Below are positions 1 through 11,057 of a DNA stretch of 11,057 bases, piece after piece. Positions within the stretch are counted from its first letter, which is position 1, and each line of letters starts with the position of its first letter. The notes beneath the pieces were generated by a model. The model was not told where the DNA came from and did no database searches. It saw nothing but the letters and a program-made list of their open reading frames with translations. The DNA lies in the UHGV virus genome UHGV-0152719; one strand, given 5' to 3'. A program made the translations under genes and the position numbers. Source of the stretch: a virus.

Positions 1-88
1 GCATACATCGCCTTTATGAAAAGACAGGAAAAGATAAAATTTAAAAACAGTACATTACGAATGCTCAGACCTATCGTTTAAAGGAGTC

Positions 89-1858: not shown

Positions 1859-1968
1859 CAATATCCCCACTTAAGTAATGTTTCAGGTTGGTGTGTTGGT
1901 GTTATCTTTCCCTTTTTATTCATAGAGATAGAGCGAAAAACAAAACCACCACCAGCACCCGAAAAAGG

Positions 1969-2012
1969 CTCATAAATAGCGAAAACCCGCGCGCCTTCCG
2001 CCCCGTAGCCTG
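1969..2012 (-). other. Lambda-like cos site (cosN-equivalent plus adjacent conserved flank), upstream of terS
   Basis: Minus strand reads caggctacg-gggcggaaggcg-cgcgggttttcgctatttatga; lambda cos as recalled is caggttacg-gggcggcgacct-cgcgggttttcgctatttatga. 22 contiguous nt identical downstream of cosN, left half of the 12-nt cosN identical, right half differs at 6 positions. Position (about 150 bp upstream of terS start) mirrors the lambda cos-Nu1 arrangement. Confidence 0.6.
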
Positions 2013-2059
2013 CCGGATCGCCGGAAAGGACCCGCCAGCCAGAACGGGCCCTAATTTCA

Positions 2060-2805: not shown

Positions 2806-3852
2806 TTAGCCAATGCGAACGGTAACAAAACGATTGATGCGGGCCGGTATTGGCTGTGGTGCTGAATGTGTCTGCACATATTCAATAGCCGGATCACCAG
2901 GCACAATATAGTTTTTCGGTGCAAGTTCGGCTTTAGTCAGCCCCATTCGGATTAGCTCCGGATCCTGAATACCGCCATAGGCGACAATCCCCTGAAGAGC
3001 CGTATTGCCAAGCACCATCAAATCAGGATCAAGGAAATGTTTTTCAGTTCCGTCCTCGTCGGTATAACGCCCGCTGTATACAACAATCGCAACATCGCCC
3101 ATATACCCTTTAAAACTCACCGAATCACCAAGGTCTTTAAGAGCCGTTTCCAGTTCGGAATTAGAACCACGACGGGTATCCAGAGCCTCTTTTATCGCTC
3201 TGAATGAACGGTATTTCTTCCATACATTACCGCCCATAATGATGATATTAGTGACGCCCTCACTAAATTCTGCGTAGCTCTCAATATCATCATTTGGATC
3301 AAAAGTTTCTTTATCCTTACCTGACCACTCAGCACCGCCAGACTGAGTGATGATATTTTGTGGTTTAATATTCCAGTCCAGCTCATAACGTTCAATACCA
3401 TCGCCCTCAATGATATTTTTCCCCGTTGTGATTGCCTGAACGGCAAGCCATTCAATACGTGCACGAATAGCTTTAGCCTGATTTACAATCGCCTGTTTAA
3501 CTTTAATATTACGCGCTCCAAAAGCATTGTATTGCTCAGGTGATACACCAGCAGGGCGCACAGCTAACTTATTTGGATCAATGCTGCTTTTCGGCTTCAT
3601 ATAGCCTGGACGAATTGTTTTTGATTCGTACCCTTCGTCACGTGAAACTTTACTACCCACCATAGGAGAACAAAACGCTGCAATTGGGATATTTGGATCG
3701 TCGATTGTATCAAGAATAATATCGCGCGATTCAAACATTACCGAGCGAGTGAAAAACAAACTGGTAAACAACGCATTTAATTTTTTTTGCACATCTTCAG
3801 CATTAGCCACCTGCACAAGCTGTGTAGGCGAATATAAATCAACCATACTCAT
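2806..3852 (-). CDS. Major capsid protein, lambda gpE family
   Basis: Strong similarity to lambda gpE: NIITQSGGAEWSGKDKETFDPNDDIESYA ... RSFRAIKEALDTRRGSNSELETALKDLGDSVSFKGYMGDVAIVVYSGRY vs lambda NITQSGGTEWSKRDKSTYDPTDDIEAYA ... RSFKAVKEKLDTRRGSNSELETAVKDLGKAVSYKGMYGDVAIVVYSGQY. The ORF extends to 3933, but the MSMVDLY start (3852) matches the gpE N-terminus MSMYTT; the alternative ATG at 3846 has better SD spacing. Confidence 0.85.
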   Translation of the reverse strand: MSMVDLYSPTQLVQVANAEDVQKKLNALFTSLFFTRSVMFESRDIILDTIDDPNIPIAAFCSPMVGSKVSRDEGYESKTIRPGYMKPKSSIDPNKLAVRPAGVSPEQYNAFGARNIKVKQAIVNQAKAIRARIEWLAVQAITTGKNIIEGDGIERYELDWNIKPQNIITQSGGAEWSGKDKETFDPNDDIESYAEFSEGVTNIIIMGGNVWKKYRSFRAIKEALDTRRGSNSELETALKDLGDSVSFKGYMGDVAIVVYSGRYTDEDGTEKHFLDPDLMVLGNTALQGIVAYGGIQDPELIRMGLTKAELAPKNYIVPGDPAIEYVQTHSAPQPIPARINRFVTVRIG

Positions 3853-4017
3853 CCTCTTTACATTCATTACAAATAATTGTGAATATATTCTATTACCGAT
3901 GTCTGCTATGCGAATACATGCAACCAAGTGCAATGTTGTATAAAATATGCCGTAACAACTTCAGTGCTGATAATTCGTGTTAATGTATTTACTTCCTTTG
4001 GTTGGGATTTATGTAGC

Positions 4018-4063: not shown

Positions 4064-4486
4064 TTAAAACGGTATATTATCGCCGTACGGATCATCATTC
4101 CCCGACTGTTGTTTTGCCCTGTTCAGTGCGTCAGTGGCCTGCCCCTGCTGGCCTTTTTTGCCGCCCGGTCGCGCCGTTCGCGCACTGATTACGCTGTCTG
4201 CGATAACCTGCCAGCCCCGCCGCGTTTCGCCGTTCTGGCCTGTCCACTGGCTTACCTGCATGTTACCCGCCACGCTCACCAGTTCGCCTTTGTGGTGTTT
4301 TGCCAGTGCGTCGGCCTGTCTGCCAAACGCCAGGACGGATAACCACATCGTCGCCGTTCCGTCATCTGCCTGGCTGCACGGCAGGGGAACCGCCATACTC
4401 GCCATCGCCATTTGTGTCCCTTTGCTGGTGGTCTTTAACTGCGGGTCAGCCACCAGCCGCCCGTAAGCCGCTATCTGTGCTGTCAT
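4064..4486 (-). CDS. ssb: Single-stranded DNA-binding protein (SSB-like OB fold with acidic C-terminal IPF tip)
   Basis: WLSVLAFGRQADALAKHHKGELVSVAGNMQVSQWTGQNGETRRGWQVIADSV parallels E. coli SSB [52 protein letters not shown]; Gly/Gln-rich linker; C-terminus DDPYGDNIPF resembles the SSB DDDIPF tail. Start ATG overlaps the upstream gene's stop (ATGA). Confidence 0.7.
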   Translation of the reverse strand: MTAQIAAYGRLVADPQLKTTSKGTQMAMASMAVPLPCSQADDGTATMWLSVLAFGRQADALAKHHKGELVSVAGNMQVSQWTGQNGETRRGWQVIADSVISARTARPGGKKGQQGQATDALNRAKQQSGNDDPYGDNIPF

Positions 4487-4786: not shown

Positions 4787-5014
4787 CTCCTCTACCTCTC
4801 TACCTAATCATCTTTCAGGTCAGTAATGGCGCGGCTTTCAGATGGGTAGAGGGCTTTCGGGGCCCTCTACCCATCCTCTACCCGCCCCTCACAAATGACC
4901 TTAATCATGGTGGAGGAGGTAGAGGGCTTTTATTTGCCTTCTACCTGGCCCTCTACCTGCTTATCATATTGAATAATATATATTTATTTTCTTTAGGTAG
5001 AGGAGGTAGAGGGC
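4787..5014. repeat. Iteron array with AT-rich core: putative origin of replication
   Basis: Ten copies of an 8-bp motif in both orientations: CCTCTACC at 4789, 4864, 4875, 4950; variants TCTCTACC 4797 and TTCTACC 4939; GGTAGAGG at 4845, 4918, 4996, 5006; three carry the longer form GGTAGAGGGCTTT. AT-rich stretch 4958-4995. Sits immediately 3' of the primase-helicase gene. Confidence 0.65.
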
Positions 5015-5026
5015 TTTTGTCTAAAA

Positions 5027-6781
5027 TTATAAAAACGCGTCGCAATCCTCTGTTGTTGTCACATTGGTTTGCGTAAGTCCTTTAACCCTGCGCGTTATAT
5101 ATTCACATCCGTAAACTTTCGCCGCTGGCTTCATGGCCTTGCTGAAATCAGCCACGTTTAGCGGCTTGCTTCTGCCTGCGTATGCCATAAACGCCAGATA
5201 GACGCGGTAAAGGCTGTTTCTGGTCGTGTACTTCACGGAATCGCCACCGCCACCCATCATCAGGCCGCGCGCTTCCTCCAGAAAATTCAGAAACTGGCAA
5301 AACTCAATAACCGGATCCGTCTGTTGCTTTATCGCCAGTGCTTCTTCACCGTCGCGCTGTTCAATCAACAAATGTCGCGCCTTTTCTGGATCAGCAAAGT
5401 TTGCCAGCAATCTGCGGATAATCACGGGGATTTCAGCCGCGACCTTCTCCGGTAAATCCTTGTCCTTTTCTGCCTCGCTAACGATATTGTCGAAGCGGAA
5501 AATTACGCGACGACGTGACACACCTCCGGCCCGTTCGGTGAATATCATCGGGTTATTGTTGGTAGCCAGCACCACCGCCCTGATTACCGCCGTAAAACGC
5601 TTTTCATATTTCGGGTTTATTTCCACGGGGTCGCCGCCCGTGATTTTCTTGATGCCCGTGCCTTCGCCTGTATATTTCGGCTGGTCAGCCAGGACGATAA
5701 GACGACTCCCGACAACCTGAGCACGCCCACCAGCATCATCAAGCGAAGTCATTTCAGCGCTTACCGTGTTCTGTTTCCCTGCCAGAAGGCTGGCTATGTG
5801 CGTGAATGTACTCTTTCCGCTCCCGCCGTCTCCGGTGGCCTCAATAAACATCTGCCAGTCGTACCGGTTCGCCATAATCATGTACAGCGCGGCACATATA
5901 CGCATCATCTTGCGTGGGTCTTTTCCGGCTGCGTGATCAAGCCATTTATGAAAGTTTGGCGCGTTGTCGCGGATGTTCTCCCCTGGTGCTGGTGGCGTGT
6001 ACTCAATGCCGTTGTGCGTGGTGATCCAGTTCTCCGGCGAGTGCGGGGAAAATTCCCCCGTTTTCAGATTAAGCACACCATTAGTGAACGGTAGCAAATC
6101 GCCAGACGGCTCGCCCATTGGTTCGGCAATAACTTTTAACGCTTCCACGGCGTTATTGATTGCGCGCTTGCTGAAAGTGGCCCTGTGCTCTGAATAGATC
6201 GCCACCATTTCGCGGCTAAGTTCCATTGTGCTGACCGGACACCATACCCCGCCGCGCCATACGTGAACGATTTCACTTTCAGGATGTACGCAAACGCCAT
6301 CAAAGCGATCGGCAAGCAACTGCGCGCGCTCACTGTCCGCCATCTGCGAAAGTTGCGCCTTTTGCTTTACCGGAAGCTCAATGACCAGACCATCAGAAAG
6401 ATTCTGGCGTTCACGGGCCAGATATTCGCGCCAGTTCTGCACCTCCTGGCCGTGCATACCCTCAGGATAAAAATTTGCATCCTGTACGCCTGCTGCCGCC
6501 AGCTTCTGACCAATCGCCTTTATCATTACAGGCGCAAGATATCCGGCCCTGTATATGCGTGCTGATTTTCGGCCTTCCGGCACAATTTGCAGATTATCCA
6601 GTTCGGATAGCTGCTGCTCCCCAAGCCACACAGGAGGCTCATTATCTCCGGCCATACGCGCATCATGTTCCTGCCATTGTTTCGCGTGTGCCCAGGCATC
6701 ACTACCCGCAAAAATAATGACTTCTGTTCCTTTGTGTTTTATGCCGCGTGACTGCTGTTTTACGTTCGGTGCCAGTTTCAT
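5027..6781 (-). CDS. Primase-helicase, phage/plasmid P4-alpha-like (Walker A GDGGSGKS)
   Basis: 584-aa ORF; Walker A motif TGDGGSGKST followed by helicase-like region; N-terminal primase-like portion; typical P4/PICI pri-rep size and position next to iterons; start ATG overlaps upstream gene stop. Confidence 0.85.
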   Translation of the reverse strand: MKLAPNVKQQSRGIKHKGTEVIIFAGSDAWAHAKQWQEHDARMAGDNEPPVWLGEQQLSELDNLQIVPEGRKSARIYRAGYLAPVMIKAIGQKLAAAGVQDANFYPEGMHGQEVQNWREYLARERQNLSDGLVIELPVKQKAQLSQMADSERAQLLADRFDGVCVHPESEIVHVWRGGVWCPVSTMELSREMVAIYSEHRATFSKRAINNAVEALKVIAEPMGEPSGDLLPFTNGVLNLKTGEFSPHSPENWITTHNGIEYTPPAPGENIRDNAPNFHKWLDHAAGKDPRKMMRICAALYMIMANRYDWQMFIEATGDGGSGKSTFTHIASLLAGKQNTVSAEMTSLDDAGGRAQVVGSRLIVLADQPKYTGEGTGIKKITGGDPVEINPKYEKRFTAVIRAVVLATNNNPMIFTERAGGVSRRRVIFRFDNIVSEAEKDKDLPEKVAAEIPVIIRRLLANFADPEKARHLLIEQRDGEEALAIKQQTDPVIEFCQFLNFLEEARGLMMGGGGDSVKYTTRNSLYRVYLAFMAYAGRSKPLNVADFSKAMKPAAKVYGCEYITRRVKGLTQTNVTTTEDCDAFL

Positions 6782-8710: not shown

Positions 8711-9289
8711 TCACTGAATGCGGTTACCAAAGTAAAACTCAGGCTGATATTCACGTATCAGCCTTTTTTCTTCTTCCTCCAGCTCACGCTTTTTGCGCTT
8801 ACATGCCTGTAGCTCCCTCCCCTTCTCGCTGGCACTTATTTGATATTGCTCTTTACGGCGGGAAAAATCCTGTAATGCACCCCACGGGATACCATAAGCC
8901 CCCGTTTTTCTGATACCTGGTATCACATTTCTGAATACCCAGTTACTGAAACGATGAGCAAATGTGCCCGGCGTCGTTGCTTTGCGGCTGCGGGCTATTA
9001 GTTTGTAGAAACCTGACTCAGAGATAATTCTCATATTCTGATTTCCTCCTGGGGTGTAAGTTAAATTTACTCCCTTTTCATCATCATCAAGCATCTGCAA
9101 CGCCGTACGCGAATTGGTTAGTTCCAGCGCAGCACAAACATCTTTTGCAACAAACCACGGATCGCCGTTCAGATACACCACACGAACGTTCACACTATCA
9201 AAGCGCAGAACGACGAGATCACGAATATCGCAGAATTTTTTCACTGGACGAGCGTACCCCTTGCCCGTCACGGCAATATTTTTATTCAT
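8711..9289 (-). CDS. Bro-N domain protein (phage antirepressor-like), 192 aa
   Basis: N-terminal region VVLRFDSVNVRVVYLNGDPWFVAKDVCAALEL...LQMLDDDEKGV matches the Bro-N/antirepressor N-terminal domain pattern; C-terminal charged coiled-coil-like tail. Confidence 0.75.
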   Translation of the reverse strand: MNKNIAVTGKGYARPVKKFCDIRDLVVLRFDSVNVRVVYLNGDPWFVAKDVCAALELTNSRTALQMLDDDEKGVNLTYTPGGNQNMRIISESGFYKLIARSRKATTPGTFAHRFSNWVFRNVIPGIRKTGAYGIPWGALQDFSRRKEQYQISASEKGRELQACKRKKRELEEEEKRLIREYQPEFYFGNRIQ

Positions 9290-9345: not shown

Positions 9346-9603
9346 TTATTGCTGTTTTGTTTTTCCAGGTTTCCATCCAGGATGCCACTCACCACGGATC
9401 CATGCCTGAACCTCTGAAAGTCGATACCCTGCAGCACGTTCACCGATCTTGATACGTCGCGGGAATTTACCTGCCTGCTCCATTTTCCAGCGTGTTGAGT
9501 TTGCCAGCGTGGTAAGTGCTATGCACTCTTTTTCACGAATGAACCGATCAATGTCCTTCATTGTGCGCAAATCGTTTTCATCAACAAGAGAATAAATTGC
9601 CAT
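9346..9603 (-). CDS. alpA: AlpA-family transcriptional regulator / excisionase-like protein
   Basis: 85 aa with HTH IALTTLANSTRWKMEQAGKFPRRIKIGERAAGYRLSEVQAWI typical of AlpA (prophage CP4-57 regulatory protein family); AAGAGG SD; immediately downstream of the integrase. Confidence 0.8.
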   Translation of the reverse strand: MAIYSLVDENDLRTMKDIDRFIREKECIALTTLANSTRWKMEQAGKFPRRIKIGERAAGYRLSEVQAWIRGEWHPGWKPGKTKQQ

Positions 9604-9604
9604 A

Positions 9605-10846
9605 TCACACCACCTCTTTATTAAGCTCGATAACGTTGTTGTTAAATCCTGCTATCGTATTAAGGTAATTAACCCACATATTAAGCACCTCAAGTTTTTT
9701 CTTTATATGCCTGCTTTTATTGTAAACACCAGCAACCCCTTTCACTTTATGACCTAAAAGAAGTTCGACAATATAAGGATCCGCCCCCATATCATTAAGC
9801 GTAGTGGAAAATGTGCGCCTGAAATCATGTATGCACCACAAGCCATTAGTATCATGACCAAGACGCCTGCATATTCTGTTTGCAGCCCCTGTTATTGTCG
9901 CCCTTTGCAAAGCACAACCGACAACATAACCGCAATTTTTTGTTTCTGCGTAAAGATTAACGATCCATTGTTTTATTCCGTCAGGAACAGGCCTTACTAT
10001 AGCCTCCTTGTTTTTGCTGTGCTCTTTTGGGACTGTCCATACCCAGTTTTTTAAATCCCATTCGTCCCAGGTGGATAGCCTCGCCTCCTGCTGTCGGCAA
10101 CCAAACACCAGGCAGATAACCATTATTCTTCGGTTATATATTGATGACAGAGTTAGCAAATTATTACCGTAAGCATAAGACCATACATCAGCGGTTTCAT
10201 TGATATTAAGAACGCGATCCCTTATACCGGATGAGCGCCCGACATAACTTACGTTAATATCTCCAAAGGGATCGCACGCGATGTATTGCCTGACGCGACA
10301 AAAACGCAACGCCTGTTTGATATCAAGAAAAATTGCACCAGACATAACAGGCGCATTTTTTTTGATCCTGTCAAAGACGGTAAGCCATGTGTGTAATTTG
10401 CACTGTTCTATAGCCATATCACCGATATAGGGGAAGATATGCTTTTCAAATCGTTTTATTAAATATTCATGCTCTTTTCTGGCTGTTGTGGCGTGATTGT
10501 CGTACCAGTAAAACAGCGCATCCCTTACGGTCACTGGTTGCATAGTTTTTTCGGCAGCAAGTTTTATTTGCCTGCGGGGGTCCAGATTTTCAGCCAGCCA
10601 TTCACGGCACTGATCACGCATGCGCCTGGCCGTTGCAAGAGACATGTCAGGATAGCGACCAAGTGTAAGCCATACCGGAGGGGATTCCCTGCCACCAAGA
10701 CGATAGTAAAAAACAAAGCTGATCCCCCCAACCATGCTTACACGCACAGACAACCCGCGCCCATCCGCTATTGTTTTTTGTTTGTCCTGCCGTTTTCCGA
10801 CAAGACTCTTTAACAGTTTGTCACTGAGTTTGTTTTCAATAGCCAT
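9605..10846 (-). CDS. int: Tyrosine site-specific integrase, P4-type
   Basis: 413 aa; N-terminal P4-integrase-like arm-binding region (MAIENKLSDKLLKSL...GRGLSVRV); catalytic-domain motifs including HDFRRTFST and the GVAGVYNKS tyrosine region; GAGGG SD upstream. Confidence 0.9.
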   Translation of the reverse strand: MAIENKLSDKLLKSLVGKRQDKQKTIADGRGLSVRVSMVGGISFVFYYRLGGRESPPVWLTLGRYPDMSLATARRMRDQCREWLAENLDPRRQIKLAAEKTMQPVTVRDALFYWYDNHATTARKEHEYLIKRFEKHIFPYIGDMAIEQCKLHTWLTVFDRIKKNAPVMSGAIFLDIKQALRFCRVRQYIACDPFGDINVSYVGRSSGIRDRVLNINETADVWSYAYGNNLLTLSSIYNRRIMVICLVFGCRQQEARLSTWDEWDLKNWVWTVPKEHSKNKEAIVRPVPDGIKQWIVNLYAETKNCGYVVGCALQRATITGAANRICRRLGHDTNGLWCIHDFRRTFSTTLNDMGADPYIVELLLGHKVKGVAGVYNKSRHIKKKLEVLNMWVNYLNTIAGFNNNVIELNKEVV

Positions 10847-10864: not shown

Positions 10865-10918
10865 TTGCAATACACACCCACCCCGATCGCCAATTTGCAA
10901 TACACATTGCAATACACA
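10865..10918. repeat. Three direct copies of TTGCAATACACA motif upstream of int (partner of 89-110 repeats)
   Basis: ttgcaatacacac 10865-10877, ttgcaatacaca 10895-10906, ttgcaatacacaaa 10907-10920; same motif and orientation as the two copies at 89-110; candidate att-arm / recombination-directionality or int-promoter operator sites. Confidence 0.5.
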
Positions 10919-11057
10919 AAACCGCGAAAAACTGGAAAGGTGATGAACGGTCATCAAAAGCATGGAAAACGACATTCCAGACGCAGCAAGGGTTTCAGTG
11001 GAGTTGGCGAACGATGCGGGCAACTACGGTGAGATGATAGACATAAATCGCCTTCAC

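Follow-up and report, generated by a model that had tools for sequence, protein, structure and literature searches.

What reads a short DNA motif that recurs, always in the same orientation, near both ends of a phage satellite? In the 11,057-nt stretch of viral DNA analyzed here (the window), a preliminary description had noted two tandem copies at the left end and three at the right, the latter upstream of an integrase gene (int), and had offered as explanations imperfect att flanks, arm-type binding sites for the integrase or AlpA, or an int operator. We argue below, from comparative sequence analysis, that the five repeats are probably arm-type sites, to which the element’s own tyrosine integrase would bind with its N-terminal arm domain.

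Both the motif and this main interpretation have been published before. Tommasini, Mageeney and Williams (2023; NAR Genom Bioinform 5:lqad036, PMC10111431) described helper-embedded PICIs (HE-PICIs), satellites that reside in, and are co-oriented with, the late genes of a helper prophage, and reported in every one of them a doubled motif, tgTGTATTGCantgTGTATTGCa, which occurs twice per attP in the same orientation, at offsets of 81 ± 2 bp and 132 ± 2 bp to opposite sides of the attP center. Int, AlpA or an unknown protein are named there as its possible reader, and the introduction of the same paper adds that AlpA may activate the int promoter; the motif is said to be absent from other PICIs and to lack a match to an IHF site as well (PMC10111431). 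The observation on this window is thus correct but not new. Our additions are small: a fifth site, clade-specific variants of the motif that share the layout of P4, and a comparative case for Int over AlpA.

Results

The element, its boundaries and the att core

The window is an HE-PICI inside the portal gene of a lambda-like prophage. In the closest E. coli genomes the element lies within that gene, which is annotated as two separate fragments, and in E. coli GPEC1031, for example, the split portal gene and int are both on the minus strand and therefore co-oriented. All genes of the window are on the minus strand (Table 1). When the flanks at one locus (L001) are joined without the element, the resulting 235 bp agree at every position (100% identity) with the uninterrupted portal gene of phage PhiR68_2; because of this identity the boundaries of the element are exact, and comparison of the synthetic empty site with the intact gene sets attL and attR at the ends of the window. 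The crossover block common to both junctions and the empty site is the 8-bp ATCGCCTT. The window therefore runs from att core to att core, and the repeats do stand at both ends of the element, as first described. These ends match, almost base for base, the attL and attR sequences of site group B_Phage_portal_2_241 (B:Phage_portal_2:241; identity block ‘aaggcgat’), which includes an Edwardsiella tarda member (supplement of PMC10111431), and the window belongs to this group, called portal_241 below.

Table 1 Coordinates of features in the window and of arm-type repeats in related elements
Feature	Position	Strand	Remarks
att identity block ATCGCCTT, int-distal junction	7–14	.	Extended core 1–14, GCATACATCGCCTT
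Exact copies of GCAATACAC	89–97, 101–109, 10867–10875, 10897–10905, 10909–10917	+	Exact match
int-distal doubled motif, published HE-PICI motif, cGTGTATTGCAgtGTGTATTGCg (minus-strand reading)	88–110	−	Half-sites 89–97 and 101–109
Nu1-like small terminase	1316–1870	−	
Second AlpA-like protein	2060–2443	−	
Lambda-E-type capsid protein	2806–3933	−	
D5-type primase	5027–6781	−	
BRO-N protein	8711–9289	−	
AlpA-family regulator, putative excisionase	9346–9603	−	85 aa; Pfam Phage_AlpA, E = 5e-14
Tyrosine integrase	9605–10846	−	413 aa; Pfam Arm-DNA-bind_3 and Phage_integrase
Fifth, single half-site GTGTGTATTGCAA (minus-strand reading)	10865–10877	−	28 nt upstream of int ATG
int-proximal doubled motif, published HE-PICI motif, tGTGTATTGCAatGTGTATTGCa (minus-strand reading)	10896–10918	−	Half-sites 10897–10905 and 10909–10917
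Inverted repeat TGATGAACGGTCATCA between core and proximal doublet	10941–10956	.	Conserved block; related copy at 285–306
att identity block ATCGCCTT, int-proximal junction	11047–11054	.	Extended core 11041–11054, ACATAAATCGCCTT
Doublets, E. coli hpt-site PICI (L013)	19308–19328 and 33838–33858		Motif GTGTATCAC
Doublets, E. coli fis-site PICI (L014)	Both att arms	Reverse	Motif TGTATAAAC
Doublet and single copy, Providencia fis-site PICI (L136)	9870–9890 and 9957		Motif GTGGGGTAC
Tandem doublets, P4 (NC_001609 annotation)	3942–3965 and 4151–4174		Flank core at 4078–4097

Copies and geometry of the repeat

Searched over its whole length, the window contains five exact copies of GCAATACAC, all on the plus strand, and no sixth. 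Dinucleotide-preserving shuffles of the sequence contain 0.15 copies on average and none of 200 reached five, excluding a chance origin; one-mismatch copies elsewhere in the window are on the opposite strand and in a number within chance, and the same whole-window motif scan found no additional copy at the element’s internal promoters. Within each pair, one copy begins 12 bp after the other; the lone copy lies 30 bp from the right-hand pair. The conserved unit, tTGCAATACACa, is about 12 bp and thus longer than the 9-nt GCAATACAC. The preliminary description was accurate in the number, common motif and shared orientation of the copies and in the strings that it quoted. Its placement of them just outside the last genes holds on the right, where they fall in the stretch that separates the att core from the start codon of int (10846), but not on the left, where the pair is ~900 bp from the first gene with no annotated gene between. 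Read on the minus strand, both pairs are the published HE-PICI motif: tgTGTATTGCantgTGTATTGCa is the reverse complement of the motif first noted and consists of tandem TGTATTGC cores with a 12-bp period. Two other readings of the repeats were rejected, as IHF sites by eye (no match to WATCAANNNNTTR) and as origin iterons, the candidate iterons of the element (4828–5018) being different in sequence.

In the reconstructed attP all five copies fall within 286 bp, forming the single cluster that had been anticipated for the excised circle. Measured from the core center to the near edges, the left pair is 77.5 bp and the right pair 132.5 bp away, close to the published ~81 and ~132 bp (the right pair within 132 ± 2 bp), and the single copy is at 173.5 bp. 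The gap between the doublets is 213 bp in the window, the sum of the published offsets of 81 and 132 bp, and 212–216 bp in the eight elements with both ends in hand, which represent six core sequences. By contrast, anywhere from 13 to 53 nt lie between the proximal doublet and the int ATG. Thus, what constrains the position of the doublets is the crossover site rather than the int gene, as would be expected for the architecture of an intasome. The repeats are a motif distinct from the core, present on both attP arms at defined distances, as in the arm-type sites of heterobivalent tyrosine integrases.

Conservation among relatives

The 65 E. coli copies of the int/att region are all at least 98% identical and yield no footprint; more distant integrase homologs were therefore used. 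At the same portal position lie an E. tarda element, whose Int is 88% identical to the window’s, and elements of Serratia (77%, a remnant) and of a metagenome (69%). More distant elements lie at a different portal site in Citrobacter (Int 55% identical), in the capsid E gene in E. coli (54%) and in a Clp-protease/capsid gene in Klebsiella (51%). Along the core-to-int arm of the four portal_241 elements, mean column identity falls to 75%. In these same elements, whose Ints are only 69–88% identical to the window’s, the int-proximal doublet is invariant at 21 of 21 positions and the fifth half-site at 13 of 13. The int-distal doublet is invariant in the E. tarda and metagenome relatives and its flanks diverge. 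Every half-site is unchanged in the E. tarda, Serratia and metagenome relatives, while the spacers diverge. In the four-way alignment of the core-to-int arm, conservation elsewhere is limited to the core and an inverted repeat, TGATGAnnGTTCATCA. As a candidate accessory-protein site, the inverted repeat TGATGAACGGTCATCA, situated between the core and the proximal doublet, may be bound by AlpA or by a host (bending) factor.

Broader scans added little. A protein scan of genome contigs for Int gave no match. Scanning 596 Gb of genome contigs for the doublet pattern TGTATTGCNNNNTGTATTGC returned mostly unrelated organisms and is uninformative, because by our own estimate ~280 chance matches are expected from its 16 specified bases. 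All that is left of a portal_241 element in Serratia quinivorans (L003/L004) is int, alpA and the int-proximal att arm, next to a truncated portal gene and with unrelated chromosomal genes beyond. This locus is a decayed composite of helper and satellite in which the three half-sites have stayed intact.

The same layout in sister PICIs and P4

The capsid-forming PICI at the E. coli hpt site (L013) carries GGTGTATCACTC twice, with a 12-bp period, on both arms, and the E. coli fis-site PICI (L014) carries cTGTATAAACA twice on each arm. In these two elements the gap between doublets is 213–214 bp, and the distances from the core are as in HE-PICIs on both arms. A Providencia fis-site PICI (L136) has its own variant, GTGGGGTAC, as a doublet and as an additional lone copy close to int; on the int-proximal arm, the one covered here, the doublet begins 137 bp from the core center. 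The reported absence of the HE-PICI motif from other PICIs is true of the sequence but not of the design.

For integrases that carry this arm domain the archetype is satellite phage P4, whose attP arm repeats were reportedly described by Pierson and Kahn in 1987. Its target is a tRNA-Leu gene, unlike the prophage late gene of an HE-PICI. The P4 RefSeq record (NC_001609) annotates six 12-bp ‘attP arm sequence repeats’ with the motif tGGGGGCAtA. As in the window, co-oriented tandem doublets of 12-bp units flank the core, extra single copies lie near the int start, and the integrase has an Arm-DNA-bind_3 domain; moreover, 15 nt separate the end of the P4 proximal doublet from the int ATG, compared with 13–15 nt in most HE-PICIs. 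P4 differs in the motif itself, in the gap between doublets (185 bp versus ~214 bp here) and in having one extra copy that is inverted and overlaps the int start codon, and its Int is only 22% identical to the window’s integrase. Because the sister clades and P4 repeat the 12-bp doublet design, the HE-PICI motif is best regarded as one clade-specific version of an arm-site layout known from P4.

An Enterobacter hpt-site element (L137, 10985–12514) shares with L014 the last ~240 nt of int, a DUF6387 gene (98%) and alpA (100%, protein), and the remainder of its int is of the hpt type. On this comparison, L137 evidently contains a recombination breakpoint inside int that exchanged the int/attP module. 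A search for an E. coli element pairing an hpt-type int with a fis-type AlpA found none.

Which protein reads the motif

The integrase of the window has an arm domain (Pfam Arm-DNA-bind_3, PF13356; residues 7–94, E = 4e-17), and its N-terminus matches the solved arm domains PDB 3ju0 and 3jtz (E about 3e-7). Across the HE-PICI site groups that share the motif, this domain is 58–71% identical and the rest of Int 46–53%, which fits conserved arm specificity combined with changing core specificity. Moreover, the four motif variants pair with four distinct versions of the arm-domain beta-strands, and among ten elements, with kinship ignored, arm domains average 67% identity when the motif is the same and 56% when it differs. 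AlpA behaves differently. L137 and L014 have 100% identical AlpA and 98% identical DUF6387 proteins and different motifs (TGTATCAC/GTGTATCAC of the hpt type in L137, an assignment that rests on the int-proximal side of the element, and TGTATAAAC in L014), whereas Salmonella L135 keeps TGTATTGC although its AlpA is ~40% identical to HE-PICI AlpAs. These comparisons disfavor AlpA and suggest that the motif follows the arm domain of the integrase, with the qualification that they are few and that the int-proximal doublet is linked to int and would travel with it in a module swap. Three motif variants occur side by side in E. coli, a single host species, which makes a host factor unlikely as the reader; GTGTAT is common to all three, and a protein that reads only this half of the motif is possible.

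These observations bear on each of the other explanations. That the repeats are the att sites themselves, in the form of imperfect attL/attR flanks, or else a product of chance, has in its favor their location near both ends and their like orientation, but GCAATACAC does not occur in the reconstructed attB, the empty site without the repeats equals the intact portal gene, the block actually shared is ATCGCCTT at the window ends, and none of the 200 shuffles reproduced five copies; we regard this explanation as refuted. AlpA is a more serious contender, as a recombination directionality factor (RDF, or excisionase) and/or an int activator acting on tandem direct repeats in the manner of Xis, Apl, TorI and Vis. 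Its gene directly follows int, HE-PICI AlpAs are fairly conserved (57–77%), AlpA is among the possibilities listed in the HE-PICI paper (PMC10111431), and the sites of RDFs are typically direct repeats spaced by about one helical turn (PMC7498355). However, the repeats occupy both arms at unequal, fixed distances from the core and form the outermost conserved blocks, and they do not co-vary with the presumptive RDF, as the identical AlpAs of L137 and L014 and the divergent AlpA of L135 illustrate. RDF sites, to judge from lambda Xis and similar proteins, lie on one arm, between the core and the arm sites. Furthermore, no copy of the motif is present at the element’s internal promoters, and the conserved TGATGAACGGTCATCA is available as a separate site for an accessory factor. 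We therefore consider it improbable that AlpA is the reader; of the joint proposal of integrase/AlpA arm-type sites, the integrase half is favored by the arm domain, the fixed geometry and the likeness to P4, and the AlpA half is weakened by identical AlpAs that accompany different motifs.

Still less probable, in our judgment, is that the int-adjacent copies serve mainly as an int operator, for autorepression or for blocking read-through from helper late genes, and that the distal pair is incidental. All ten elements examined do have at least one half-site 21–47 nt upstream of the int start, with a single copy filling in where needed, and P4 Int and KplE1 IntS are described in PMC2951348 and PMC7286903 as repressing their own promoters through overlapping arm sites. 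Nevertheless, conservation of the distal pair equals that of the proximal pair, and across clades the spacing of the two pairs is constant to within ± 2 bp; an operator-only model does not account for this, and no promoter-like site was found upstream of int. An operator function is better viewed as something that the arm sites do in addition than as a rival to their arm-site role.

The fifth copy and possible regulation of int

The published account describes four half-sites and makes no mention of a fifth (PMC10111431), whereas the portal_241 group has a fifth copy that is conserved in all four elements compared; it is absent from the portal_227 and CLP_110 site groups. An extra single half-site occurs where the doublet is farther from int: in portal_241 the doublet is at −70/−58 and the single copy at −28 relative to the int start, and in the Providencia element they are at −131/−119 and −44. 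This placement of half-sites suggests a second role as an int operator, which is plausible above all for the fifth copy. In the window, half-sites occupy −70 to −20 relative to the int ATG, but a promoter scan of the int upstream region detected no sigma-70-like promoter, and by eye there is no convincing −35/−10 pair, so the operator role remains conjecture; int may be transcribed by read-through from the helper late operon.

Discussion

If the repeats are integrase arm sites, as we consider probable, the following sequence of events can be envisaged. Excision would join the ends of the element into a single 286-bp attP, with a tandem pair ~78 bp to one side of the 8-bp core, a co-oriented second pair ~133 bp to the other side and one more half-site 30 bp beyond the second pair. 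Int subunits would grip the core, via their catalytic and core-binding domains, and the arm sites at the same time, and this bridging would fold the DNA into an intasome competent for integration into, and excision from, the portal gene; binding of Int to the repeats would be required for recombination. Because the int-proximal sites fill the 70 nt before the int start codon, their occupancy by Int would probably also damp int expression, as has been demonstrated for P4 Int and KplE1 IntS.

The model has parallels in known systems. The lambda Int sites P1, P2 and P′1–P′3 are likewise five arm sites, split two and three and distinct from the core sites, although lambda Int has an arm domain of another family and the site sequence is unrelated. 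To our knowledge, the use of different subsets of sites for integration and excision is established for lambda only. The lambda arm sites are bound by a separate N-terminal domain of the heterobivalent integrase (introduction of PMC2951348). In P4, Int represses its own gene by binding DNA at the arm sites (Piazzolla 2006, as relayed in PMC2951348 and PMC7286903). In the IntS/TorI module of KplE1 (CPS-53), IntS and the RDF both negatively regulate int (Panis et al. 2010, PMC2951348); as in the window, int faces the att site and its upstream region is the att arm that holds arm-type sites. KplE1 differs in having several P′ sites with a TAAA-containing consensus, which are interleaved with five TorI sites, and a mapped promoter.

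Carried further, these parallels raise a possibility that we regard as doubtful but worth stating, namely that a single attP architecture (12-bp doublet, ~65–80 bp, core, ~122–135 bp, doublet, int start) extends from P4 through the PICI clades, that the arm-site code is rewritten in each clade by a few arm-domain residues independently of core specificity, and that the fifth copy is a dedicated Int operator gating int or late-operon read-through, so that excision would occur only late in helper induction.

More broadly, arm sites of this kind would provide a satellite with precise entry to, and exit from, an essential head gene carried by its own helper prophage, and would underlie the timing trick of helper embedding, in which the helper’s portal gene is restored only after the satellite has excised. 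Comparative evidence for Int, and not AlpA, as the reader of the motif is a modest gain. A second is the layout shared, with clade-specific motifs, across hpt and fis PICIs and P4, which could be of use in predicting att arms and in re-targeting integrases of this family as tools.

Other features of the element

Several further features were observed in the window. A lambda-type cos region (GGGCGGAAGGCGCGCGGGTTTTCGCTATTTATGA; 1965–2035, minus strand) lies just upstream of the Nu1-like small-terminase gene, and positions 1970–2035 are 100% identical to the lambdoid phages YDC107_1 and PhiR46_1, in which the segment is unannotated; the satellite appears to copy the packaging site of its helper. 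Just downstream of the primase gene, GGTAGAGGGC-like repeats (4828–5018) comprise direct units at 4909–4931 and 4996–5018, which are 96% identical, and inverted units at 4828–4854 and 4862–4888, and are probably the iterons of the satellite’s replication origin.

An Rfam search of the window returned no RNA family, including for the non-coding segment at 440–585, which contains a palindrome (501–544) and matches the int-distal non-coding regions of two other elements, the hpt capsid-forming PICI (L013, 33346–33495; 88% identity) and the HE-PICI at the capsid-E site (L008; 85%). The gene-poor left 900 bp also hold a 38-nt direct repeat (765–802 and 820–857; 76% identical, 55 bp apart), with positions 759–807 showing 90–94% identity to a portion of the roi/antirepressor genes of Stx and lambdoid phages. 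Finally, immediately inside the distal doublet, a strong terminator-like hairpin on the plus strand (129–156), with an 11-bp stem followed by a T-run, faces into the element, opposite to the direction of all satellite genes.
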